Virus record (IMG/VR): IMGVR_UViG_2875713109_000008
Coordinates: 1 to 14,940 of that record
DNA length: 14,940 nucleotides
DNA from: a virus
Lineage: Duplodnaviria; Heunggongvirae; Uroviricota; Caudoviricetes
Direction: 5' to 3' (one strand)
Shown: positions 1 through 14,940 of the stretch, piece after piece
How the letters are laid out: each line of letters starts with the position of its first letter
Numbering within the stretch: position 1 is the stretch's first letter
The notes under the pieces: model-generated
Database searches by the model: none
Seen by the model: only the letters and a program-made list of their open reading frames with translations
Told to the model about the DNA's origin: nothing
Translations under genes and position numbers: made by a program

Positions 1-735
1 TTACTCCCTGACAGGGTTCGTAGGCCACTCAATATCAGGTGCAGTTGTTGTATTAACACGGTTCAGCAACACCCGATACTTTTTCCAGGCTTCCAGCAAC
101 GAGTTTTCTTCCTCCGTTGCGATTTCCAGATCTGCAGCATCCTGAAGTGGCGCAATATGCTCACTGGCTACCTGCATCAGGTTGTTTTTTGTTTCTTCCG
201 CCTCCCGGATCCGGAACAGTTTTTCTGCTTCCGTATCCTTCACCCAGGCTGTGCCGTTCCACTTCTGATATTCCCCTTCCGGCGATAACCAGGTGACATT
301 TTCCGGTAACGAGCCAAGTTCAGAAATAAATAACGCGTCGCCGGAAGCCACGTCATAGACGGTTTTTCCCCGATGATCTTCAACGAGATGCCACGATGCC
401 TCATCACTGTTGAAAACAGCCACAAAGCCAGCCGGAATATCTGGCGGTGCAATATCGGTACTGTTTGCTGGCAGACCTGTATGAGGCGGAATATATGCGT
501 CACCTTCACCAATAAATTCATTAGTTCCGGCCAGCAGATTATAAATTTTTATGGTCCGTGGTTGTTCACTCATTCTGAATGCCANNNNNNNNNNNNNNNN
601 NNNNNCGGTACTGTTTGCTGGCAGACCTGTATGAGGCGGAATATATGCGTCACCTTCACCAATAAATTCATTAGTTCCGGCCAGCAGATTATAAATTTTT
701 ATGGTCCGTGGTTGTTCACTCATTCTGAATGCCAT
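1..735 (-). CDS. tfa: Tail fibre assembly protein Tfa (lambda orf-194 family); reading frame carries an in-frame 129-bp repeat plus 21 N
   Basis: Translation [43 protein letters not shown]... matches lambda Tfa from memory. ATG at 735-733 overlaps the stf stop (TAATG). Natural length is likely about 194 aa once the duplicated block is removed. Confidence 0.85.
456..734. repeat. 129-bp exact direct repeat (456-584 and 606-734) bridged by 21 N (585-605); period 150 bp
   Basis: Seen directly in the sequence; copies are identical and the unit keeps the tfa frame (X run in the translation). Confidence 0.9.
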
Positions 736-3700
736 TATGCAAGCCTCACAATATAGTTAAATGCGATGTTTTTGACGGTGTTTTCCGCGTTACCAGCAGC
801 GTTAACGGTGATGGTGTGTCCATGTGAACCAATCGCAACGGAGTGCGTATGAGCACCAATACCGACAGTATGCGCGTGTGCACCTGCAGATGCTGCTGTG
901 CNNNNNNNNNNNNNNNNNNNNNTGACGGTGTTTTCCGCGTTACCAGCAGCGTTAACGGTGATGGTGTGTCCATGTGAACCAATCGCAACGGAGTGCGTAT
1001 GAGCACCAATACCGACAGTATGCGCGTGTGCACCTGCAGATGCTGCTGTGCCGGACAGTGAGTGGCTATGATTACCATCTGTACTGGTATTAGCTAACCA
1101 CCCCGTAGACATACCTACTGAGCCTTGTACACCCCAGGTATTTTGACCTGAGCTTGTATAACCATATTGATAAGTATCTTTAAAAACACTGGGGTTAAAT
1201 CGACGGCCATCTCTATGGCTGTGATTACCAGCTGCATTCGTGCTGCCACTTAAACTATGGGTATGCGCACCAGTGTTATTCGTGGATTTAGTGCCGTAAT
1301 CAAACGACGATGTGGTTTTCGTCCCCAAATCCGTACTGGATGCGCTGGCGCTGTGGGTATGCGATTTAATGCCATCCTGTTCCTGAGACAATACGGCACG
1401 ACCACTGGCGGGCTTGCCCTTAATCGTCCAGCCACGCATATCAGGGATCACGCCTGACGGATAAGCGGCTGCAAGTTTCGGGTAAGCAGATTTGTCAAAA
1501 GTCTGCCCCTGCATCAGGGCATAACCAGACGGAACGGTATCTGATGGCCACGGGATTGGTGCGCCGACTGGGTAGCTTTCTGGTGGAAGATTTTTCGAGG
1601 TATAAACTTCTGCCCAGTCTTCCTCAAAACCATAACCGTCTCTTGAAGAACGGTAGAACAGACCACCATTTCTGTAATGCGCCTTCATCTGCAAGGTCCG
1701 GCAACTTCCGACTCCGGTATAGAAGTTAACCAGAATATAGCTGTCGCCAGAGCGGGTGACATTATAAGCGCCTGATTCGGCATTCCAGGGAACGCCACCA
1801 TCCGCATCGGCATATGTATCCGTTGCCCTTCTGGCAAAAGCAGCCACATGCGCGGCGGTTAAAGTAATATCTTTGGAACCATCAAACTCAACACCAGAAA
1901 CCCGTCTTGGCGTTTGCAGCTTTGTTGCTGTTAATGCATTACCGTTCAGACTTGCGGACAGTTTGGTTCCAATAACCAGTTCGCCGGTTGCGTTATCAAT
2001 AGCAAACGGTCTTAATGTATTCCAGCCACCATAAACATCACCTTGATTGGTAAGCAGCAGGTAAGTTTTAGCGCCATCATTACGCCATAATGCCCCATAC
2101 TCCCCACCTATCATTCGAATCTGATTACCACCACGCGCTACAATTTCGTCTGTGGCAAAAAGTTTTTTGCACGACAAGTTATCGTTAACGATTAACGAAT
2201 GAGACTCATAAAAACCACGCCCACTCTTAAAATCAAGGATAACGTCCGCCGCGATACATTCAGTCGCCGGATTTGTTGCCCCAAACTTATAGGTCGTATC
2301 ATTAACAACGAGATCAGCACCAGGTGTGGATATTGACAGGCCATCTTCGATAAACGCAAAAACAGGGAAAGCAGCGCCATCAACATAGAACACAGAGCGC
2401 AAATCATCGCCCTTATTACTCATCATTATTGAGTGGATGGCTCGTTCATTGTTTTGATATTGCCAGAACATTCCATAAGCATAACGCCCCCTGTCAGTCC
2501 AGCCACCAGGCATAACAAATCCGTTAAACTCGCAGTTATTCATCGGATCGCCTGCGGTTCGCGTTGCCGTGGTGATAATGACCCTTGATGCCAGTTCGCT
2601 TACTGAGCCAGCAGAACGCATAACAACAACAGGGTAATATTTTCCAGATGTTGCACCTGCAGGAGCGTTAACCCGCACATAACGCATACCACGCTTATCA
2701 GCAAAGTCTGTTTTACTGACCGCGTTAATGTTGTTCAGGAAGCGTCCCTTATCGGGTATATCAGCGCCGTTCTGGTCTTTCTGCAGACGTTTCTCTGCAT
2801 TGTCATAGGCTGATTTTACTGCCTTTGGCGTTGCCGCCAGCGTTTCAGACGTACTGTTGGTCGCACTGCTGAGCTGTACTATCCCCTTTTTCGTCGTACT
2901 TGCATCCTCAAGCGCCACGGCGGATGCAATATCCTCTGCCCGTTTTGCCGCTGTCTCGGCGCGCGTTGCCGCGGATTCCGCCGTACTTTTGCTCTGTGCT
3001 GCCGCCGTCGCACTGCCAGCTGCCTCTGTCGCCTTCGTGGATGCTGTCGTGGCGCTGCCCTTCGCTGCGGACGCTTGTCTGGTCGCCTCATCTTTTGAAG
3101 CAGACGCCGATGATGCCGATGACGCCGCCGAACTGGCGGACGATGCGGCAGCCGTTTTTGAGGATTCTGCGCTGGTTTCCGACGCTTTCGCGTTCGTCTC
3201 GGATGTCTTCGCTGCGGAAGCAGACCTCGCTGCTGCGCTGGCCTGTTCAGTGGCTTCGCCAGCCTTCGTTGTGGCTGTTGAAGCAGACGATGCGGCACTT
3301 TCTGCCGATTTTCCGGCGGCGGTGGCACTGGCTGAGGCCTGCCCGGCACTTGTTGACGCGGCACTGGCAGACGACGCAGCCGCTGTTTTTGAGCCTGCCG
3401 CAGCCGAGGCGCTCTGTCCCGCTGCCGTTTCAGAAGACCTGGCGTTTGTCTCAGACGTCTTTGCCGCCTTCGCGGAATTGCCTGCCGCCGTTGCCGAGGA
3501 AGCGGCACTACTGGCGCTTGATGATGCGTTCGTTTCTGATGATTTCGCTGCCTCTTTTGAGGCCGCCGCATCCCGGGCTGAGGTGGCTGCTTCTGACGCC
3601 TTCGTGGTCGCGGCGGATGCAGAAGTGGCTGCTGATTGTTGTGACGCTGCCGCATTCGTTTCTGACGTTTTCGCCGCAGCGGCACTGGTAGCTGCCGCGC

Positions 3701-4283
3701 TTTTTGAGGACTCTGCAGCAGCAGCACTTTTCGATGCTTCACTGGCCTTTGTTGATGCCGTTCCTGCGCTGGAAGATGCTGACTGAGCCGACGACGCGGC
3801 CTGTCCGGCTGACGTGCTGGCTGCGCGTGCTGAGCCTGCAGCATCGGTTGCATGAGTTGCCGCCTCACTGGCAGATGTGCTGGCATCACTGGCTGACTTC
3901 TTCGCGGCTGCCGTGTTCTGTGCCACTGCGGACGCGTTACGCGCCACCTCTTCCACCATCAGTTCAAAACGTCGCAATGCCTCCGGACGGGCATCATCCT
4001 CCGTCATGGCACCGAGAAAATCATTCAGCGTACCGGGTTGAGAATCTTCATACACGGTAATGGTCCCGGCATGTGACGGCGGGAATCCCTCCACCAACAG
4101 AATAACGCTGTACTGCCCGTACTCAACGTCCATGCTGTAACGCCCGGCTTCATCCGGATTTTCTGAGGCCAGCGTGTTCACCACCACCGTGGTGCTGTTA
4201 CGTTTTGCTTTCAGCTGGATTGTGCAGTTCTGTACCGGTTTTCCTGTGCCGTCTTTCAGTACACCTGAAATCTTTACTGCCAT
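735..4283 (-). CDS. stf: Side tail fibre protein Stf (lambda Stf-like N-terminus, long Ala/Ser/Thr-rich central region, His-rich HxH C-terminal repeats)
   Basis: N-terminus [30 protein letters not shown]... and C-terminus ...[12 protein letters not shown] match lambda Stf from memory. ATG at 4283 is preceded by GGGGTG; the ORF track starts at a GTG at 4289. Contains the second N-bridged repeat. Confidence 0.88.
773..1051. repeat. 129-bp exact direct repeat (773-901 and 923-1051) bridged by 21 N (902-922); period 150 bp
   Basis: Seen directly; same architecture as the repeat in tfa. It duplicates the His-rich segment near the Stf C-terminus. Confidence 0.9.
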
Positions 4284-4294
4284 ATTCACCCCAC

Positions 4295-4320
4295 AAAAAA
4301 GCCCGCCTGAACCGGCGGGC
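4295..4320 (-). terminator. Rho-independent terminator between lom and stf on the minus strand
   Basis: On the minus strand a GCCCGCC/GGCGGGC hairpin (6-nt loop) is followed by TTTTTT, just upstream of the stf ribosome-binding site. Confidence 0.55.
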
Positions 4321-4347
4321 TGTCATAACACTGTGTTACCTGGCTAA

Positions 4348-4693
4348 TCAGAATTTATAACCGACACCCACGATGAAACCGTCAGTGCGCCAGTCACCAC
4401 TGCCGGAGCCTTCATAAGCAATATCAATGGCCACGGATTCGGTCGGGTTAAACTGCACGCCAGCCCCCCACGCCAGAGACGTGTTGCTGTGGCGACCGTC
4501 ATCACTTCCGGTCAGCACATCGTGCTTTTTCCCCTTGTTGTCAGTTACGCGAAGATAATCCCCGGAGAAAGTCGACACACGGCTGTAAGCTACACCCGCC
4601 ATCGCATACGCGCTGAACCATTCATTCACGCGCACAGACGGCCCCGCCATTACGCTGAACCAGCGGTTACGAACGGAATCTTCATGCCAGCGG
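4348..4693 (-). pseudogene. lom: 5'-truncated lom (Ail/Lom/PagC-family outer-membrane protein); only about the C-terminal 115 codons remain
   Basis: Translation ...RWHEDSVRNRWFSVMAGPSVRVNEWFSAYAMAGVAYSRV...GFIVGVGYKF matches the Lom C-terminus from memory. The frame stays open upstream but runs into cos-like sequence at about 4693, with no signal peptide or plausible start. Confidence 0.8.
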
Positions 4694-4890
4694 GTAACCT
4701 GTCGGATCGCCGGAAAGGACCCGCAAAATGATAATAATTATCATCTACATGTCACAACGTGCATCTACGCCATCAAACCACGTCAAATAATCAATTATGA
4801 CGCAGGTATCGTATTAATTGATCTGCATCAACTTAACGTAAAAACAACTTCAGACAATACAAATCAGCGACACTGAATACGGGGCAACCT
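4694..4890. other. Lambda right-end (cos-proximal) homologous region, reverse-complemented; homology stops at the cosN right terminus
   Basis: Minus strand reads ...GATCCGACAGGTTAC then lom sequence. Lambda's right end is recalled as ...GATCCGACAGGTTACG, and the downstream window sequence is collinear with the lambda right arm through bor. Confidence 0.6.
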
Positions 4891-4891
4891 C

Positions 4892-5086
4892 ATGTCAACG
4901 AAGAACAGAACCCGCAGAACAACAACCCGCAACATCCGCTTTCCTAACCAAATGATTGAACAAATTAACATCGCTCTTGAGCAAAAAGGGTCCGGGAATT
5001 TCTCAGCCTGGGTCATTGAAGCCTGCCGTCGGAGACTAACGTCAGAAAAGAGAGCATATACATCAATTAAAAGTGATGAAGAATGA
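4892..5086 (+). CDS. Small basic hypothetical protein (64 aa; Arg/Thr-rich N-terminus), conserved lambda right-end ORF (recalled as YlcI/DUF3950-like)
   Basis: ORF MSTKNRTRRTTTRNIRFPNQ... with a GGGG-rich region upstream of the ATG; position matches the lambda/DLP12 right-end gene set. Confidence 0.5.
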   Translation: MSTKNRTRRTTTRNIRFPNQMIEQINIALEQKGSGNFSAWVIEACRRRLTSEKRAYTSIKSDEE

Positions 5087-5250
5087 ACATCCCGCGTTCT
5101 TCCCTCCGAACAGGACGATATTGTAAATTCACTTAATTACGAGGGCATTGCAGTAATTGAGTTGCAGTTTTACCACTTTCCTGACAGTGACAGACTGCGT
5201 GTTGGCTCTGTCACAGGCTAAATAGTTTGAATGATTAGCAGTTATGGTGA

Positions 5251-5457
5251 TCAGTCAACCACCAGGGAATAATCCTTCATATTATTATCGTGCTTCACCA
5301 ACGCTGCCTCAATTGCTCTGAATGCTTCCAGAGACACCTTATGTTCTATACATGCAATTACAACATCAGGGTAACTCATAGAAATGGTGCTATTAAGCAT
5401 ATTTTTTACACGAATCAGATCCACGGAGGGATCATCAGCAGATTGTTCTTTATTCAT
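5251..5457 (-). CDS. Hypothetical protein, 68 aa (lambda p79 / YbcW-like)
   Basis: ORF of 68 aa at the position and size expected for the conserved small gene between bor and cos in lambda-like phages. Confidence 0.55.
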
Positions 5458-5742
5458 TTTGTCGCTCCATGCGCTTGCTCTTCATCTAGCGGTTAAAATA
5501 TTACTTCAAATCTTTCTGTATGAAGATTTGAGCACGTTGGCCTTACATACATCTGTCGGTTGTATTTCCCTCCAGAATGCCAGCAGGACCGCACTTTGTT
5601 ACGCAACCAATACTATTAAGTGAAAACATTCCTAATATTTGACATAAATCATCAACAAAACACAAAGAGGTCAGACCAGATTGAAACGATAAAAACGATA
5701 ATGCAAACTACGCGCCCTCGTATCACATGGAAGGTTTTACCA

Positions 5743-6153
5743 ATGGCTCAGGTTGCCATTTTTAAAGAAATATTCGATCAAGTGCGAAAAGATTTAAACT
5801 GTGAATTGTTTTATTCTGAACTAAAACGTCACAACGTCTCACATTATATTTACTATCTAGCCACAGATAATATTCACATCGTGTTAGAAAACGATAACAC
5901 CGTGTTAATAAAAGGACTTAAAAAGGTTGTAAATGTTAAATTCTCAAGAAACACGCATCTTATAGAAACGTCCTATGATAGGTTGAAATCAAGAGAAATC
6001 ACATTTCAGCAATACAGGGAAAATCTTGCTAAAGCAGGAGTTTTCCGATGGGTTACAAATATCCATGAACATAAAAGATATTACTATACCTTTGATAATT
6101 CATTACTATTTACTGAGAGCATTCAGAACACTACACAAATCTTTCCACGCTAA
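5743..6153 (+). CDS. Hypothetical protein (lambda p78 / YbcV-like); the longest ORF starts at a GTG at 5620
   Basis: ATG at 5743 is preceded by GGAAGG at suitable spacing and gives 136 aa; the 177-aa ORF from 5620 has no ribosome-binding site. Confidence 0.55.
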
Positions 6154-6443
6154 ATCATAACGTCCGGTTTCTTCCGTGTCAGCACCGGGGCGTTGGCATA
6201 ATGCAATACGTGTACGCGCTAAACCCTGTGTGCATCGTTTTTAATTATTCCCGGACACTCCCGCAGAGAAGTTCCCCGTCAGGGCTGTGGACATAGTTAA
6301 TCCGGGAATACAATGACGATTCATCGCACCTGACATACATTAATAAATATTAACAATATGAAATTTCAACTCATTGTTTAGGGTTTGTTTAATTTTCTAC
6401 ACATACGATTCTGCGAACTTCAAAAAGCATCGGGAATAACACC

Positions 6444-6737
6444 ATGAAAAAAATGCTACTCGCTACTGCGCTGGCCCTGCTTATTACAGGATGTGCTCAA
6501 CAGACGTTTACTGTTCAAAACAAACCGGCAGCAGTAGCACCAAAGGAAACCATCACCCATCATTTCTTCGTTTCTGGAATTGGGCAGAAGAAAACTGTCG
6601 ATGCAGCCAAAATTTGTGGCGGCGCAGAAAATGTTGTTAAAACAGAAACCCAGCAAACATTCGTAAATGGATTGCTCGGTTTTATTACTTTAGGCATTTA
6701 TACTCCGCTGGAAGCGCGTGTGTATTGCTCACAATAA
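6444..6737 (+). CDS. bor: Bor lipoprotein (serum-resistance-associated outer-membrane lipoprotein)
   Basis: 97 aa with lipobox LLITGC; MKKMLLATALALLITGCAQQTFTVQNKPAAVAPKE... matches lambda Bor from memory. Convergent with Rz as in lambda. Confidence 0.93.
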   Translation: MKKMLLATALALLITGCAQQTFTVQNKPAAVAPKETITHHFFVSGIGQKKTVDAAKICGGAENVVKTETQQTFVNGLLGFITLGIYTPLEARVYCSQ

Positions 6738-6743
6738 TTGCAT

Positions 6744-6769
6744 GAGTTGCCCATCGATATGGGCAACTC
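6744..6769. terminator. Perfect 26-bp palindrome (GAGTTGCCCATCGATATGGGCAACTC) between convergent Rz and bor; likely bidirectional terminator
   Basis: Seen directly: 11-bp arms around a CGAT core, overlapping the Rz stop codon. Confidence 0.45.
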
Positions 6770-6827
6770 TATCTGCACTGCTCATTAATATACTTCTGGG
6801 TTCCTTCCAGTTGTTTTTGCATAGTGA

Positions 6828-7144
6828 TCAGCCTCTCTCTGAGGGTGAAATAATCCCGTTCAGCGGTGTCTGCCAGTCGGGGGGAGGCTGCATTATCCAC
6901 GCCGGAGGCGGTGGTGGCTTCACGCACTGACTGACAGACTGCTTTGATGTGCAACCGACGACGACCAGCGGCAACATCATCACGCAGAGCCGTTCAGCGG
7001 TGTCTGCCAGTCGGGGGGAGGCTGCATTATCCACGCCGGAGGCGGTGGTGGCTTCACGCACTGACTGACAGACTGCTTTGATGTGCAACCGACGACGACC
7101 AGCGGCAACATCATCACGCAGAGCATCATTTTCAGCTTTAGCAT
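6828..7144 (-). pseudogene. Rz1: Rz1 o-spanin lipoprotein embedded in Rz; native frame is also broken by the 134-bp duplication
   Basis: Rz1 start MLKLKMM... is encoded at 7144-7124 and the Rz1 C-terminus ...[10 protein letters not shown] ends at 6828. The extra 134 bp (not a multiple of 3) separates them in frame. Confidence 0.6.
6857..7124. repeat. 134-bp exact tandem direct duplication (6857-6990 and 6991-7124), no N spacer
   Basis: Seen directly; the two copies are identical and adjoin head to tail inside Rz/Rz1. Confidence 0.9.
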
Positions 7145-7360
7145 CAGCTAACTCCTTCGTGTATTTTGCATCGAGCGCAGCAACATCACGCTGACGCATC
7201 TGCATGTCAGTAATTGCCGCGTTCGCCAGCTTCAGTTCTCTGGCATTTTTGTCGCGCTGGGCTTTGTAGGTAATGGCGTTATCACGGTAATGATTAACAG
7301 CCCATGACAGGCAGACGATGATGCAGATAACCAGAGCGGAGATAATCGCGGTTACTCTGT

Positions 7361-7858
7361 TCATTGCTGACCCCACAAACAGATTTCACGCTCAATCTCA
7401 CGACGAGTCATGAGACCTTTCCATTGCTTACCGCCAGCATATGTCCAGCGACGTAGCTGATCACATGCGCCTTTGATATCGCCCTGGTTTATTTTGCGAA
7501 GAAGCGTCGATGTTCTGAAATTGCCAGCACCCACGTTGTAAACGAATGAGTAAAGAGCGCCGCGCGTTGTTTCCGGTATATCGACTTTGATGTACGGGTT
7601 AATTTGTCTGGCGACAGTGGCAAGGTCTTTATTCAAGAGTGCTTTGCATTCTGCTTTGGTATACGTTTTACCGAGCATGATGTCTTTTCCGGTGTGTCCG
7701 TGACATACAGTCCATACGCCAACGATATCTTTGTATGGTACGTAGCTGACACCTTCCAGACCATCGTTACCACTTGGGCCAGTGATTAACACAGATGCTA
7801 TGGCAATAGCCCCGCCACCAATAGCAGCAGCAACGGCTTTTCGTAATGATGGAGGCAT
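7361..7858 (-). CDS. R: SAR endolysin, phage 21 R-type (T4-lysozyme-like muramidase with Gly/Ala-rich N-terminal signal-arrest-release segment)
   Basis: 165 aa, [44 protein letters not shown]...; start overlaps the S stop (TAATG). Confidence 0.9.
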
Positions 7859-8073
7859 TATTCACCTCTCGCAGCCTTGCGCTTATCTTCTTTAATCTTG
7901 AAATAAAGGTTTGTCAGATACGTCAGCAGGCCAAACACCAGACTACCCAGCACACCTATTGCCGCCCACTGTGAGGGCGTGACTTTATCGAGCAACTGTA
8001 AAAACCAGTACCCGGCACTACCTGCTGAGGTGCCATAGGCGACACCCGTTGTTAACTTATCCATGGATTTCAT
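7858..8073 (-). CDS. S: Pinholin, phage 21 S-type (71 aa, dual-start MKSM motif)
   Basis: [71 protein letters not shown]; GAGGTGGGG ribosome-binding site before the ATG at 8073. The ORF track's longer N-terminus has no ribosome-binding site. Confidence 0.88.
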
Positions 8074-8112
8074 AACCCCACCTCGCAGATGCGGGTGCTG
8101 TGTAATGGAAAT

Positions 8113-8135
8113 AAAAAGGCCACCTGACGTGGCCA
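8113..8135 (-). terminator. Rho-independent terminator right after the methyltransferase stop and before S
   Basis: On the minus strand a GGCCAC/GTGGCC hairpin (5-nt loop) is followed by TTTTTATTT. Confidence 0.55.
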
Positions 8136-8140
8136 CCAGA

Positions 8141-9193
8141 TTATTTCCCCACCAGCTCGTTTATCTCTTTCACTGTCTGGTTAAACCGCTCTGACTCAAG
8201 CTCAACACCTAAGGCCCGACGCCCCAGCGCCATTGCTGCTTTTATTGTGGAACCGGATCCCATAAAAAAATCAGCAACCAGATCACCAGGTCGACTACTG
8301 GCATTGATTATTTGCCTGAGCATATCCGCCGGTTTCTCACACGGATGTTTACCCGGGTAGAACTGAACGGGTTTATGCATCCAGACATCGGTATAAGGCA
8401 CGGAGACTGATACGGAGAAATAGCGCCGGAGAGATTTAAACTCATCCAGCAATTCAGAATATTTGCGATTCAGTGAATCATAAGATGCCACCAGCTGGTG
8501 GTGTGGTTGTTCCAGTTGTTGTTCCTGAAACTTCTCTGCCGCTATACGGGAAAACAGTGCCTGTAACTTCCGATAGTCAGCCTCATTCGGCAACTGCCAC
8601 TGACTGGCACCAAACCAGTGGGAAACCATATTTTTCTTACCTGTGGCTTCGGCAATTTGTTTTGCCGTTATACCCAGTTCGGCACGAGCATCCCTGAAAT
8701 ACGATATCAGCGGTGCCATTATGTGCTGTTTGAGTTCCCTTTCTTTTGCCGCATAGCCGTCACTTTTGCCGCGATATGGCCCCTGGTAATGTTCAGCAAA
8801 CAGAACGCGCTCTGTGGCAGGAAAATATGCGCGCAGACTTTCTTTATTACACCCATTCCAACGTCCGGACGGCTTCGCCCAGATGATATGGTTAAGCACG
8901 TTGAAACGTTCACGCATCATGATCTCAATATCAGATGCCAGGCGATGCCCACAGAACAGGTAAAGGCTTCCGGCAGGTTTCAACACCCGCCAGAACTGGG
9001 CCAGACAGTGGTCCAGCCACTTAAGGTAATCTTCGTCCCCTTTCCACTGATTGTCCCAACCGTTGGGTTTCACCTTGAAGTACGGCGGATCGGTAACAAT
9101 CAGGTCAATGGAATCATCAGGCAGGGACTGAATAAAATGCAGGCAATCAGCGTTGATTAAATCAACACTGTTTATTTTTACAGTATTTTTCAT
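8141..9193 (-). CDS. DNA methyltransferase, beta-class N6-adenine/N4-cytosine type (motif IV DPPY precedes motif I FxGxG); no restriction partner visible
   Basis: 350 aa with VTDPPYF near the N-terminus and FFMGSGST near the C-terminus. The start at 9193 has no clear ribosome-binding site. Confidence 0.82.
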
Positions 9194-9342
9194 GGATCAG
9201 TAAGCGTAACTCTGGTAGGCTCACTCTGCTTTTGCGCTAAAGCAGTGGGCCGTGGTTCGCTTGTGACCAGTAAGCATGAGCGAATGGCTGGCAGGTGCTA
9301 CCAACACCCACCAGCCGCCCATTTTCACAAATTAAAAGTCCT

Positions 9343-9561
9343 TCATAGCTGAAGGCGTCTGTAACAGCCGAACTGGTAATCTGCCAGCCCCGCCATAACC
9401 AACTGGGTCAGTATTAACTGACAGCGTTCGCGTGAAAGATATGTGTTTTGTGCAATCTCCCCGACTGTTGCCGGTTCGATGCTTAATTCATTAAAAACAA
9501 CTTTCGCCGTTTCTGTCATATCTTGCTGTTTTAACATGTCTTTTTTCCTTCTGGTTAACAT
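9343..9561 (-). CDS. Small hypothetical protein (72 aa), possibly helix-turn-helix-like
   Basis: ORF only; segment ATVGEIAQNTYLSRERCQLILTQLVMAGL resembles a DNA-binding helix pair. No clear ribosome-binding site, so start is uncertain. Confidence 0.35.
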   Translation of the reverse strand: MLTRRKKDMLKQQDMTETAKVVFNELSIEPATVGEIAQNTYLSRERCQLILTQLVMAGLADYQFGCYRRLQL

Positions 9562-9658
9562 GACATACCAATAACTCTTGTCTAAAAAGCCAGCAAGATA
9601 AAAAGTCAGTATTCACGACCACCAGCGTGTTTACCGTACTGCACCAGGTTTACAGGTA

Positions 9659-9685
9659 CAAAAAAACCCGCTCGACGGCGGGTTT
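9659..9685 (-). terminator. Strong rho-independent terminator on the late (minus) strand downstream of the antisense side of the OLD-like gene
   Basis: On the minus strand a CCCGC/GCGGG hairpin is followed by seven T; on the plus strand it is preceded by an A-tract, so it could act in both directions. Confidence 0.6.
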
Positions 9686-9788
9686 AAGTTGTGTGGCGAA
9701 GTAACCACTCTTGAGAGCATATCTGATTATTTACGATTGTAAATAATATATTCCCCCCCAATAATTAGATTGAGAAAACATTACCATA

Positions 9789-9817
9789 TTGATAATAAGG
9801 CAATTGACATAATTATA
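9789..9817 (+). promoter_or_regulatory. Candidate sigma70 promoter for the OLD-like gene (TTGATA, 17-bp spacer, ATTATA) in AT-rich leader
   Basis: Hexamers seen by eye in the AT-rich region; many alternatives exist there, so this is tentative. Confidence 0.25.
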
Positions 9818-9950
9818 AAAATCATTCTTGGTTGATTTTAAAACAACAAATGCACGATATTTACCCAATCATTGATGAATACATCTCTAAATGTTATAAA
9901 TTTATTGTTTTTCTAAAGATAACTCTCATTCATATCAGGAAAGATAAAAA

Positions 9951-11402
9951 ATGTCAGACATAAAAAATATACTAAAATGCATGTACTTTGATAAAAATAG
10001 ATACTCAAACTTTGGCTCCGTAATTAAAAGTCTAGAGATAAATGGATTTCGAGGAATAAAAAAACTAACATTAAATATAAATTTTCCGGTAACTGCAATA
10101 TCAGGGCTAAACGGCGCTGGGAAAAGCACTCTTGGGCAGTTAGCAATATGCGCATATAAAAAACCAGTTACAGCCCGTGAATATAAGAGATTATATATTA
10201 AAGATTTTTTCCCTGTATCTAAAGCCGATCCAGCCCCTTTCGATAATGACGCCAGTGTCATTTATAAATATGAAACAAATGATTCAACGAAAACACAAGA
10301 TGTGACTGTCACTCGCATAAAGTCTTCTTGGTCTGGATATAAAAGACAACCAGAAAGACACTGTTTTTACATTGGTTTTACTGTCTATATTCCAAAAGTA
10401 GAACGTAGAGATATAAGTGTTTATGGCGGTAAAGACTTTGATTTAACAGAGAGAAGAAGCGTCGACCATTCAGTAATATTGAAGATGGCAAAAATAATAG
10501 GTCATCCATATGATGATATCGCATTCCAAGGAATTTCTCATAGAGCACGTCGTTCAGAAATTGGTATTGTTGAAAGACTTGGGTATTCTTATTCTGAAAA
10601 TAACATGGGGTTTGGCGAAGGAAGAGTTCTTTATACGGTTGATATGCTTGAAACAGCTCCAGAGCAAAGTCTTTTCGTACTAGAAGAACCAGAAACATCT
10701 CTTCATGAAAGCGCACAGTATGAATTTGCAAAATATTTAATGGAAGTATGTCAACGTAGAAAACATCAAATAATATTATCAACACACTCAAGTGTGATAT
10801 TAAATGCTTTACCTCCTGATGCACGAAAATTACTTATTAGAGATCAGACTGGTGTCTATATCAAAGATGGAATTTCAACAACTCATGTGAGATCAATACT
10901 GTCTGATGGGCAGTTTAAAGGGCTGCATATTTGCGTAGAAGACCAGTTTGCAAAAGTTTTACTTAGTGAAGTAATTAGAGCAAAGCGGAGAGACATTCTT
11001 AAATCCATTCAAATCACTGATATTGGAGATAAAGATGCAGTCCGACAAGCAGTCGAGGTATTCAAGAAAGCAGGCCTTAATGTTATTGCCGTAAGAGATG
11101 CAGATGTTGGAGAAAACATTAAAGATGATTTATTTTCTTTCCCTGGCAATAGGCCACCAGAAGTAGAAGTATTTCAACATGAGGAAGTAAAAAAATTCCT
11201 CTACAAGGAGTATCATATTGATTTTGATTGGTTAATAAAAAAGGAAGGGATTAGTGATCATCACAATTACACTCAAGCAATTGCTAAAGAAGCAGAATGT
11301 GAGGAGGAAGTAATTAGAACTTTAGCAATTAAAAAATATATTGAAATTATTGATGAGAAATTTGACCCACTTATTACAAATATAGTAAGCAAAATAAAAT
11401 AA
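9951..11402 (+). CDS. OLD-family-like protein: N-terminal ABC-type ATPase fused to C-terminal TOPRIM-like domain; candidate defence or superinfection-exclusion nuclease
   Basis: 483 aa. Walker A GLNGAGKST (nt 10104-10130), Walker B LFVLEEPETSLH (from nt 10671), H-loop ILSTHSS, then ICVEDQ (Glu) and IAVRDADVGE (DxD) TOPRIM-like motifs. AGGAAA ribosome-binding site before ATG. Opposite strand to the flanking phage genes and much more AT-rich than them. Confidence 0.6.
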   Translation: MSDIKNILKCMYFDKNRYSNFGSVIKSLEINGFRGIKKLTLNINFPVTAISGLNGAGKSTLGQLAICAYKKPVTAREYKRLYIKDFFPVSKADPAPFDNDASVIYKYETNDSTKTQDVTVTRIKSSWSGYKRQPERHCFYIGFTVYIPKVERRDISVYGGKDFDLTERRSVDHSVILKMAKIIGHPYDDIAFQGISHRARRSEIGIVERLGYSYSENNMGFGEGRVLYTVDMLETAPEQSLFVLEEPETSLHESAQYEFAKYLMEVCQRRKHQIILSTHSSVILNALPPDARKLLIRDQTGVYIKDGISTTHVRSILSDGQFKGLHICVEDQFAKVLLSEVIRAKRRDILKSIQITDIGDKDAVRQAVEVFKKAGLNVIAVRDADVGENIKDDLFSFPGNRPPEVEVFQHEEVKKFLYKEYHIDFDWLIKKEGISDHHNYTQAIAKEAECEEEVIRTLAIKKYIEIIDEKFDPLITNIVSKIK

Positions 11403-11412
11403 CAAACCAGCA

Positions 11413-11447
11413 GGCGCTAATTACTAAAAACCTTGTACATTAGCGCC
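11413..11447. terminator. 9-bp perfect inverted repeat (GGCGCTAAT / ATTAGCGCC, 17-nt loop) between the convergent OLD-like gene and Q; candidate tR'-like or convergent terminator
   Basis: Seen directly; on the minus strand a T-rich tract follows (TGGTTTGTTATTTTATTTT); on the plus strand the U-tract is weak. Confidence 0.4.
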
Positions 11448-11574
11448 ACCCTCAAATAAATCAGTGGTTATTAAATCCCCACAAAAACATTAATATAAAG
11501 CACAAACAGTCCACCCTCCTTAATTTCATGCTAACAATACAAATTAAAAATCCAGATACTCATAAAATATCTTT

Positions 11575-11946
11575 CTAGATATTTGAGTCCATTTCCAATT
11601 CTATTTCTAACATTATCAACATACCTTCAATGATGCCTTCTGCCTTTTGCAATAAGCGCCCAACCCAGCAATCAGAACGCCCATGTTTACGGGCAAGCGC
11701 CATAAACGTCATACCACCTACATAATAATCTACTAATAAATCGTGCAAATCGCTGTTGTTCTTTTTCAGACGGGCCATGCACCCGCAAATGATCATCGCG
11801 TCATCGTCACAACATTGCGGGCGGGATTTTACTTTTGAAGGAAGTAATCCCTTAAAACCGGCAGCAATGGACGACCAGGTCACATCCTCATGATTATTAG
11901 CCGCCCATGCCCCCCAACGTTCAAGAACCATTTGAATATCACGCAT
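11575..11946 (-). CDS. Q: Late-gene antiterminator Q, phage 21/82 (QuuD-like) family
   Basis: [62 protein letters not shown]... with a cysteine-rich zinc-binding-like motif. GGAGG ribosome-binding site before ATG at 11946; an alternative upstream ATG at 11961 has none. Confidence 0.8.
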
Positions 11947-12091
11947 CAACTTCCTCCACAAAATCAGGCCAGCACGCCTATTGCCAACACACGGTCGATA
12001 AAACGAAATATCAGCTCCAGCTGGGAGCCATACTTCTCTTCAAATGCCACGGTATCCATTTTTCAACAATGTCACAGCAAGAGGTGAAATA

Positions 12092-12442
12092 ATGGAGCCA
12101 TACAGCCTCACACTCGATGAGGCCTGTCATTTTCTCAAGATATCCAGACCGACTGCCATTAACTGGATACGCACAGGGCGTCTTCAGGCAACACGCAAAG
12201 ATCCCACTAAGAATAAATCTCCTTACCTCACAACACGACAAGCCTGCATTGCGGCTCTTCAGTCTCCGCTGCATACTGTCCAGGTGAGCGCGGGTGATGG
12301 CATAACAGAGGAAAGAAAATGTCACTCTTCCGCAGAGGTGAAATATGGTACGCCAGTTTCACATTGCCGAACGGTAAAAGATTTAAACAGTCTCTTGGAA
12401 CAAAGGACAAAAGGCAGGCGACAGAACTCCATGACAAGCTAA
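12092..12442 (+). CDS. xis: Excisionase Xis, P22 type (116 aa)
   Basis: [38 protein letters not shown]... with GAGGTG ribosome-binding site; overlaps int by 124 bp. Confidence 0.8.
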
Positions 12443-13482
12443 AGGCTGAAGCATGGCGGGTCAGCAAACTTGGTGAAATACCTGATATAACGTTCGAGGA
12501 AGCGTGTGTCAGGTGGCTTGAAGAGAAAGCACATAAAAAATCACTGGACGATGACAAAAGCCGGATCGGATTCTGGCTTCAACATTTCGCAGGAATGCAA
12601 CTAAGAGACATTACTGAATCAAAAATTTATTCAGCAATGCAGAAAATGACGAACCGGCGTCATGAGGAAAACTGGAGACTCAGGGCAGAAGCATGCAGAA
12701 AAAAAGGGAAACCTGTTCCAGAATACACGCCAAAACCAGCGTCCGTTGCAACGAAGGCTACGCATCTTTCATTTATAAAGGCCCTACTAAGAGCCGCAGA
12801 GCGTGAATGGAAAATGCTGGATAAGGCACCAATTATTAAAGTGCCTCAACCAAAGAATAAACGGATCCGCTGGCTGGAGCCCCATGAAGCACAAAGGCTG
12901 ATTGATGAATGTCCGGAGCCATTAAAGTCTGTTGTTGAATTTGCACTGGCAACAGGCTTAAGACGCTCGAACATCATCAACCTTGAATGGCAACAAATAG
13001 ACATGCAGCGCCGGGTGGCATGGATAAACCCGGAAGAGAGTAAATCAAACCGCGCAATTGGCGTTGCGCTGAATGATACTGCATGTCGCGTTTTGAAAAA
13101 ACAAATCGGGAATCATCACCGTTGGGTATTTGTGTACAAGGAAAGCTGTACCAAACCAGACGGAACGAAAGCGCCAACAGTAAGGAAGATGCGGTATGAC
13201 GCAAACACAGCCTGGAAAGCGGCGCTGAGACGGGCTGGTATTGATGATTTCAGATTTCACGACTTGAGACACACCTGGGCAAGTTGGCTGGTTCAAGCCG
13301 GAGTCCCGTTGTCAGTGTTACAGGAAATGGGAGGCTGGGAGTCTATCGAAATGGTTCGTCGATATGCTCACCTTGCACCTAATCACCTTACCGAACACGC
13401 ACGGCAAATAGACTCGATCCTGAACCCATCGGTCCCAAATTTGTCCCAGTCAAAAAATAAGGAAGGTACTAATGATGTGTAA
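12319..13482 (+). CDS. int: Tyrosine integrase, P22 Int type (thrW-specific)
   Basis: 387 aa, [48 protein letters not shown]... with C-terminal catalytic region [10 protein letters not shown]...VRRYAHL; ends 14 nt from the tRNA-Thr 3' end. Confidence 0.95.
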
Positions 13483-13496
13483 CTTATTGATTTTAA

Positions 13497-13572
13497 TGGT
13501 GCCGATAATAGGAGTCGAACCTACGACCTTCGCATTACGAATGCGCTGCTCTACCAACTGAGCTATATCGGC
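13497..13572 (-). tRNA. thrW: tRNA-Thr (anticodon CGU)
   Basis: Minus strand GCCGATATAGCTCAGTTGGTAGAGCAGCGCATTCGTAATGCGAAGGTCGTAGGTTCGACTCCTATTATCGGCACCA folds as a cloverleaf with CGT in the anticodon loop and a CCA end. Confidence 0.9.
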
Positions 13573-13686
13573 CCTGAAAGGACATGTTCACGAACGTGAA
13601 TCACGGTGGACAAGGTTAAAACTAACCGGGCGATGCGTCAATGGCCTTGTGAATCAAATGGCTACTTTTGCATCACCCGGTTTTAT

Positions 13687-14940
13687 TTACGCACGAATGG
13701 TGTAATCACCAATGCCGATCCACTTGTAAGTGGTCAGTGCTTCCAGCCCCATTGGGCCACGCGCGTGGAGTTTTTGTGTGCTTACCGCCACTTCCGCACC
13801 CAGACCAAACTGGCCGCCGTCGGTAAAACGCGTAGAGGCGTTAACGTAAACAGCGGACGAATCCACTTCGTTAACAAAACGCTGGGCGTTGCGCATATCG
13901 CGGGTCAGGATCGCATCGGAGTGTTGTGTGCCGTGTTCACGAATATGGGCGATGGCATCGTCAAGATCGCTGACGATTTTGACGTTCAAATCTAATGACA
14001 GAAACTCATCGTCATACTCTTCGGCTTTAACAGCAACCACCTTCGCAGGGCCTGCCTGCAACTGCGCCAGTGCAGCTGCATCTGCGTGTAATGTCACGCC
14101 GCTTTCCGCCATTTGTTTGCTTAATGCGGGCAGGAAGCTATCGGCGATGTTTTTATTCACCAGCAACGTTTCAACCGTATTACATGTGCTCGGACGCTGA
14201 GTTTTCGCGTTGACGATCACTTTTAATGCTTCAGCGATCTCTACACTTTCATCAACGTAAATATGGCATACGCCTATACCACCTGTGATCACCGGGATTG
14301 TCGACTGTTCACGGCACAGTTTATGCAAACCAGCGCCACCACGCGGGATCAGCATGTCGATGTATTTATCCATACGCAGCATTTCACTGACCAGCGCACG
14401 GTCAGGATTATCAATCGCCTGCACGGCACCCGCCGGTAAGCCGCAGGATTTCAGGGCGTCCTGAATCACCGCCACCGTTGCAGCGTTAGTGCGACACGTT
14501 TCTTTGCCACCGCGCAGGATCACCGCATTACCGGTTTTCAGGCACAGCGAAGCGACATCAACCGTCACGTTCGGGCGCGCTTCATAAATCACGCCAATAA
14601 CCCCCAGCGGTACGCGACGACGCTCAAGACGCAGGCCGCTGTCCAGTACGCTGCCATCGATTACCTGCCCCACCGGATCGGCGAGGTTACACACCTGGCG
14701 CACATCATCGGCAATGCCTTTCAGCCGTGCGGGCGTCAGTGCCAGACGGTCAAGCATCGCTTCGCCAAGGCCATTGGCACGCGCGTCAGCAACATCCTGG
14801 GCGTTAGCGTTGAGGATGATTTCGCTTTGTGCTTCCAGTTCATCGGCGATTTTTTCCAGCACGCGATTTTTTTCGCGGCTGGAGAGTTGCGCTAATTTAT
14901 ACGAGGCTTGCTTCGCGGCAATGCCCATTTGTTCCAGCAT
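13687..14940 (-). CDS. proA: Gamma-glutamyl phosphate reductase (proline biosynthesis)
   Basis: Complete 417-aa [53 protein letters not shown]...; aldehyde dehydrogenase-like fold; start codon at the window's last base. Confidence 0.96.

Follow-up and report, generated by a model that had tools for sequence, protein, structure and literature searches.

The window analysed here is a stretch of 14,940 nucleotides (positions 1 to 14,940 of the IMG/VR virus record IMGVR_UViG_2875713109_000008) which carries, next to the tRNA gene thrW of one Escherichia coli strain, a lambdoid prophage whose antiterminator gene Q stands back to back with the excisionase-like gene xis. Based on the comparison with intact prophages at the same site, we consider it probable that this is a defective prophage in which one microhomology deletion has orphaned Q and left the late genes gated off, in the course of ordinary prophage decay.

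The start codons of Q and xis are divergent and are separated by 145 bp (11947-12091). A sequence-only reading of this DNA had put the distance at about 145 bp and had supposed that some 10 kb was missing there, and both statements held when the comparison with intact relatives was run. The relatives are the prophage of Escherichia coli ATCC 43886 at the proA-thrW site (locus L002) and that of JX21CE35 at thrW (locus L018), which has the same gene order; Q and xis lie approximately 9-10 kb apart in both. Window positions 7117-12057 match L002 9819-14758 at 98.7% identity and positions 12051-14940 match L002 24460-27349 at 99.7% identity, and the difference between the two match offsets (2701 versus 12409) gives 9,708 bp of DNA that is absent from the window relative to ATCC 43886. 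When the window and both L002 sites are compared side by side, the deletion junction is seen to coincide with a 7-bp microhomology, GGTATCC (12051-12057), which is present twice in L002 (14752-14758 and 24460-24466) and once in the window, the flanks being otherwise colinear with nothing inserted or lost. Both the deletion and its junction are in this way established directly, and they bear the signature of a microhomology event, namely a short direct repeat at both parental edges of which one copy is left. Illegitimate recombination in E. coli classically gives rise to short-repeat deletions, and the scar seen here is like that of the RecA-independent kind, in which the DNA between two direct repeats (here of 7 bp) is cleanly lost and one copy is kept; it is from this scar that we deduce the mechanism. 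To judge from the alignments, a single illegitimate, microhomology-mediated deletion took out all that lay between the gene preceding Q and the one preceding xis.

The two match offsets to L002 also resolve the 145-bp spacer into 17 bp of native Q-DUF968 spacer, 94 bp from the 3' end of DUF968 and 34 bp from the 3' end of a yfdT-like gene. The DUF968 remnant (11964-12057, minus strand) is the last 94 nt of the gene preceding Q in the intact relatives, and the left match ends at L002 14758, the complete gene occupying L002 14665-15654 on the minus strand (Pfam DUF968, 2.5e-80). The yfdT-like remnant (12058-12091, plus strand) derives from the gene preceding xis in these relatives, with the right match starting at L002 24460; the full gene is annotated as hypothetical in L002 (24196-24501, plus strand) and as yfdT in L018 (25823-26128). 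The fold of the Q-xis spacer is no better than that of shuffled sequence (z = -0.16), and Rfam gave no match in the Q-xis region.

The segment that was lost begins, in L002, within DUF968 and reaches up to the last 41 nt ahead of the xis start. It encodes, on Q's strand, DUF968, KilA-N, RusA, a LexA_DNA_bind protein, a Dam-type methylase, PerC, an HTH_36 replication-type protein, DUF4222, CII (CP76) and a cro-like helix-turn-helix (HTH) protein, and on the opposite strand a 230-aa cI-like repressor with HTH and Peptidase_S24 domains, yfdP, yfdQ, yfdR, a phage protein and the yfdT-like gene. By this comparison, the immunity region, both early operon starts with their promoters, the replication genes and the nin-equivalent genes are gone; on the standard gene order, no early genes would be expected further left. 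The earlier claim that the immunity, replication and nin region is missing can therefore be made concrete, as the repressor, cro-like, CII, replication-type and nin-equivalent genes all sit in the lost 9.7 kb of the relative. The loss of lytic-cycle genes relative to the intact prophages goes further, since the early region is not all that is absent, the genes from Nu1 through J and half of lom being gone too, with the caveat for these structural genes that the linkage of window positions 1-6989 to the thrW element is not secure.

The deletion is, on the evidence of database comparison, recent and private to one genome. In a megablast search with positions 11300-12700, the Q-xis junction was found in none of 5,426 complete E. 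coli genomes, the best matches stopping at 12057 or covering the right part alone; with a second megablast query against complete E. coli genomes, the right match block began at 12051. An exact 36-nt junction pattern had no match in species-representative genomes, and an exact 24-nt pattern had none in metagenome contigs. An open reading frame (ORF) of 132 aa that spans the junction occurs on one contig only, CP035331.1 (GCA_004116875.1), whose locus is identical to the window, and a literature search found no paper for accession CP035331. In the public gene call, xis starts from the ATG at 12044, across the deletion junction, so that its 132-aa product is unique to the source genome; natively the gene starts from the ATG at 12092, which has GAGGTG in front of it, and its 351 nt are the length of the annotated homologues (L002 and L018). 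As for the parts, the xis-int-thrW arrangement is present in 1,045 complete genomes, with yfdT in place among the best matches listed, and the Q-nuclease module is present in 11 of the 5,426 complete E. coli genomes, with DUF968 in place in the ten full-length matches.

Protein identity to L002 is complete for Q (123/123), the nuclease (483/483), the methylase (350/350), a 64-aa ORF (64/64), the holin S (71/71) and xis (116/116), and nearly so for the integrase (386/387) and the endolysin R (160/165). We take the deletion to be recent because an intact relative has Q, S, methylase, nuclease and xis proteins that are 100% identical. For the same reason, the intact state of Q, S and R would reflect this recency and carries no information on selection; more generally, intact genes in a young remnant are no evidence of domestication. 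The suggestion that the lysis cassette had perhaps been co-opted is thus left unsupported, the junction being private and the retained proteins undiverged from the intact relative. A remnant architecture conserved across many strains, as would be looked for under domestication, was not found, the junction being on one contig only. Nor is the idea itself new, as the Q-controlled lysis module of the E. coli prophage DLP12 has already been linked to vesicle production.

Q itself (11575-11946, minus strand) is intact and encodes an antiterminator of 123 aa of the Q21/PF06530 kind (E = 1.8e-51). It belongs to the Pfam family Phage_antitermQ (PF06530) with 173.5 bits (cut-off 26) over profile positions 1-118 of 118, and it matches the phage 21 Q structures 6P18/6JNX at E = 2.7e-8, over residues 8-90 only and at low identity. 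It starts at the ATG at 11946, preceded by a GGAGG ribosome-binding site; the ORF as called mechanically begins at a TTG and extends to 11961. A rightward early operon of approximately 6 kb ends with Q in the intact phage, and so the deletion takes away the promoter of Q. What now lies upstream of Q on its own strand is the antisense of xis and int, followed by thrW and proA. We scanned this strand with a sigma-70-like consensus at a cut-off of 9 of 12 and found no site of at least that score between 11962 and 13490, in agreement with the sequence-only reading, to which no driver of Q was apparent. A looser scan of the same interval, which took 8-of-12 sites, gave only sites with poor spacing, one of them at the junction. 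A new promoter made by the junction was considered and rejected, only 8-of-12 matches with 19-nt spacers being available there. We infer that Q is most likely orphaned, in which case no transcription of Q would be expected and the cassette would be largely silent.

The late genes themselves appear to be controlled from a separate unit. A putative late promoter (the equivalent of pR'), with TTTACA and TATGCT around a 16-nt spacer, was assigned from the promoter scan at 9716-9743 (minus strand), and a strong intrinsic terminator (the equivalent of tR') was found by the terminator scan at 9664-9685 (minus strand), approximately 25 nt past the presumed transcription start; it reads AAACCCGCCGTCGAGCGGGTTT followed by a T run and forms 8 pairs (9685-9664), 5 of them G-C. 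The terminator is conserved in the phages PhiR40_1, cdtI and Ayreon, being annotated 'terminator' in Ayreon, and the leader of the unit is also kept in cdtI. Each of the four fetched loci with this Q subtype (L002, L004, L005 and L018) has the exact late-promoter sequence, as against 0 of the 14 others. We infer that the promoter-leader-terminator unit (9743-9664, minus strand) goes with this Q subtype, and it appears to gate the lysis genes.

A late promoter directly downstream of Q (11400-11575) was rejected, because this stretch is not conserved with PhiR40_1 despite a nearly identical Q. In phage cdtI there are only 23 bp between Q and the convergent gene, and it is this shortness, together with the missing conservation after Q, that led us to place the late promoter beyond the inserted nuclease gene. 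The arrangement resembles the lambda pR'-qut-tR' and phage 21 Q systems in having, ahead of the lysis genes, a putative promoter, a short leader and a strong terminator, and its Q is a PF06530 member that matches phage 21 Q; it differs from them in that the putative late unit of the window lies 1.8 kb from Q, past a convergent inserted gene, and not directly after Q. The earlier idea that Q drives S and R therefore needs to be reworded: Q's own transcript would not do so, and S and R would depend on the separate, retained promoter-leader-terminator unit 1.8 kb downstream.

The gap between Q and the late unit (window 9685-11575; L005 3181-3778; L007 3149-4667) holds different opposite-strand genes in each phage, namely the 483-aa nuclease in the window, a 148-aa ORF in PhiR40_1 and two ORFs in cdtI, while a porin lies between quuD and essD in prophages of the DLP12 types. 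The interval between Q and its presumed target promoter seems, from these gene orders, to behave as an insertion slot.

Past the terminator come a 64-aa ORF (9343-9537, minus strand; identical over 64/64 aa to its L002 counterpart), which is the first gene and is hypothetical in the relatives, and then a DNA methyltransferase of 350 aa (8141-9193, minus strand; N6_N4_Mtase, 2.2e-42; PADLOC MTase_II, 3.3e-152), placed on the late transcript upstream of S. The holin S is of the phage 21/EssD type, has 71 aa and is intact (7858-8073, minus strand; PF04971, 3.6e-35), as is the RrrD-type endolysin R of 165 aa (7361-7858, minus strand; PF00959, 8.4e-46). The Rz/Rz1 spanin genes (6828-7364, minus strand) are disrupted, the Rz and Rz1 Pfam matches falling in one ORF in which Rz is fused to the Rz1 frame. 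The cause is a perfect 134-bp tandem duplication at 6856-7124 (Tandem Repeats Finder: period 134, 2.0 copies, 100% match), which shifts Rz into the Rz1 frame with loss of the Rz C-terminus; the relatives have one copy. Of the Q-holin-endolysin-spanin set, then, Q, S and R are retained intact and Rz is frameshifted by a duplication, real or an assembly artefact. The lysis cassette can be called intact as to S and R, given their identity to L002, and would not be intact as to Rz if the duplication is real.

Taken together, the most probable course of events would be as follows. One deletion between short repeats would have taken the repressor, the early promoters, the cro and CII functions, the replication genes and the nin-equivalent genes in a single step. 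Q would have been cut off from the early promoter and left behind two gene tails; without Q, late transcripts would stop at the terminator (9664), and the methylase-S-R-Rz genes would then be off or nearly off. We would argue that a cell can outlive the loss of the repressor only when the early promoters, replication and Q are removed or disconnected in that one event, as this deletion is predicted to have done.

Several points weigh against this account. The silence of Q is deduced from sequence, and the late promoter was assigned from conservation and consensus only. The source assembly is visibly defective elsewhere in the window. The DLP12 lysis cassette is reported to be controlled by a Q-type antiterminator, to be expressed and to have phenotypes (PMC7918800), so that an orphaned Q need not be silent. 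Finally, thrW and proA lie upstream on Q's strand with no convincing intrinsic terminator after thrW, and some read-through is possible.

These last two points lead to the alternative that fares best, which we regard as unlikely on balance: that Q is driven by the host, either through read-through from thrW/proBA or from a weak cryptic promoter, with low levels of Q and some late transcripts passing the terminator. The methylase and the holin-endolysin pair would in this case be made at a low, host-controlled level, like the DLP12 module with the roles described for it in envelope maintenance, vesicles and biofilm. In keeping with this, Q is intact with a good ribosome-binding site, and DLP12 offers a precedent (PMC7918800). 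The tRNA gene thrW is 1.55 kb upstream on Q's strand, with proBA further on; in the 120 nt past thrW the fold is no better than that of shuffled sequence, with no G+C-rich hairpin followed by a U run. Between thrW and Q there are only weak terminator-like hairpins, among them those at 12030-12012 and 11988-11968 just upstream of Q, and in the 4.8-kb region that was scanned 8 were found as against 4.1 +/- 2.0 expected from shuffling, which is no clear excess. Against it, such a transcript would run through 1.55 kb of untranslated antisense int/xis RNA in which C exceeds G (plus-strand GC skew of +0.06 to +0.11), and would thus be a likely Rho substrate, untranslated RNA rich in C over G being a likely target of Rho. 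The junction is moreover private and the retained genes are undiverged, giving no indication of selection; Rz is disrupted, if the 134-bp duplication is real; and the viability of the strain means that the output of Q cannot be high. If Q were nevertheless transcribed from host promoters, the strain would offer a convenient natural system in which to begin to study the passage of lysis cassettes to host control.

An assembly artefact, in which the strain would still have its early region and a short overlap would have led two contig ends to be misjoined, seems to us quite improbable. It has in its favour that the window contains two 21-N runs with 129-bp duplications as well as the 134-bp Rz duplication, and that a second junction, between lom and cos, is likewise private to the source genome. 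The genes of lambdoid prophages recur within E. coli genomes, and short-read assemblies often break at them, for which reason we counted this too on the side of an artefact. The Q-xis junction, however, has neither Ns nor duplicated flanks, unlike the two visible joins; its two sides share just 7 bp, far under any k-mer or read overlap; and 9.7 kb is too long for paired reads to bridge. We estimate, as (k+1)(1/4)^k(3/4)^2 with k = 7, that a 7-bp microhomology would arise at a random abutment with a probability of approximately 3e-4, while such microhomology is typical of real illegitimate deletions.

It would be a long shot to suppose that the deletion by accident wired the late switch to host transcription, so that read-through from thrW/proBA sets a low, growth-linked level of Q and hence of methylase, holin and endolysin. 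If this were true, the host-wired Q would amount to a lysis or vesicle circuit that has only just come under host control, seen at its very beginning in one strain. A site-specific or insertion sequence (IS)-mediated loss, whether Int/Xis excised aberrantly or insertion sequences or long repeats recombined, is hardly credible and was rejected from the edge sequences in L002, for although int and xis adjoin the junction, the right endpoint is in a gene tail 41 bp ahead of the xis ATG and not at the attachment site by thrW, and in the intact relative neither edge has an IS or a long repeat, GGTATCC alone being shared.

The preferred reading, a prophage decaying by deletion, finds its closest parallels among other remnants, and decay of this kind has been reviewed (PMC6379469). 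The likeness to DLP12, at argU, includes a tRNA gene, int, xis, little or no early region, a PF06530 Q (quuD), an opposite-strand inserted gene, S-R-Rz, bor/iss, the cos region and truncated structural genes, and window positions 4694-6990 are a DLP12/lambda-type segment (L015) at 99.9%. The two elements differ in their site (argU versus thrW), integrase and Q subtype. DLP12 keeps rusA and ylcG, whereas the window element keeps nothing of the nin region and has a tighter junction; DLP12 is also widespread and old, and the deletion in the window is private to one genome, in an element known from sequence alone. The DLP12 lysis operon is reported to be controlled by a Q-type antiterminator, RpoE and Hha, and to modulate vesicle production (PMC7918800). 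In a DLP12 variant of enterotoxigenic E. coli (ETEC) O6:H16 2014EL-1346-6 (L019 6893-9571), at argU, the start of intD is approximately 1.1 kb from that of quuD and rusA, ylcG and fragments alone remain between them, a pattern found in at least 12 complete genomes; in such variants quuD is followed by a porin, S-R-Rz and iss/bor. On gene order, the O6:H16 variant is an independent and widespread example of the same end-state. Another remnant, at a tRNA-Ser gene in E. coli TA8571 (L001 11893-14864), has just four small early-left genes between quuD and xis-int and likewise lacks the immunity and replication regions.

With the intact thrW prophages of ATCC 43886 and JX21CE35, the window shares the site, int-xis, Q, the nuclease, the 64-aa ORF, the methylase and S, at a DNA identity of 98.7-99.7% and with proteins that are mostly 100% identical. 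These prophages differ in keeping the 9-10-kb early region and a full set of head and tail genes, and the window, unlike them, switches to lambda/DLP12-type sequence left of approximately 7117.

The direct significance of this remnant is small; it is a further instance of a well-known kind of element and process and of low general interest. It is nevertheless a clean, datable case of a lambdoid prophage turning into a harmless remnant, with intact parents at the same site for comparison, and it illustrates how independent prophages converge on a DLP12-like layout of int, xis, Q, an inserted gene and the lysis genes.

Integration of the element is tRNA-adjacent, with integrase and excisionase genes at the junction as in the intact relatives. 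The xis-like excisionase/HTH gene (12092-12442, plus strand; 116 aa) overlaps the start of int and matches HTH_17 at 2.3e-8 and TIGR01764 'excise' at 1e-5, the latter under the family cut-off. It is followed by a tyrosine integrase of 387 aa (12319-13482, plus strand; Phage_integrase PF00589, 3.5e-48), by thrW (13497-13572, minus strand, which is Q's strand), a tRNA-Thr with anticodon CGT (ARAGORN; Rfam tRNA, 71.8 bits) that marks the attL side of the integration site, and by the host gene proA (13687-14940, also on Q's strand; Aldedh match, with an annotated proA at the matching position in L002 and L018). The inserted gene that lies between Q and the late promoter and is convergent with Q (9951-11402, plus strand) encodes a 483-aa ATPase/nuclease (AAA_15, AAA_21). 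In PADLOC it matches best the candidate defence family HEC-04 (3.9e-47) and ATPase-Toprim (2.5e-22), which makes it a candidate defence gene, and its G+C content is low (0.30-0.36).

Further to the left, the two 21-N runs lie at 585-605 and 902-922, in the tail-fibre-assembly and tail-fibre genes, each between exact 129-bp duplications. They look like contig ends that were joined with their overlaps untrimmed, which would make the source 'chromosome' a scaffolded assembly. The 134-bp Rz duplication coincides with the switch near 7117 from ATCC 43886-like to DLP12/lambda-like sequence and may be either a real mutation or an unmerged contig overlap; if it is the latter, the linkage of positions 1-6989 to the thrW element becomes uncertain. 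Of lom only the C-terminal half is present (4348-4702), joined at 4694 to GTAACCTGTCGG..., which starts 1 nt inside the mature right cohesive end; neither the 12-nt cos overhang sequence nor any gene of the Nu1-J block is present, and the junction is private to the source genome. That the deletion edge falls exactly at the terminase cut site points to one of two origins, an in-place cos cut that was repaired or a contig with its end at a terminus of phage DNA. Within the tail-fibre-assembly gene, at 44-242 on the minus strand, there is also a full-length match to the Rfam RNA family IS009 (226 bits).

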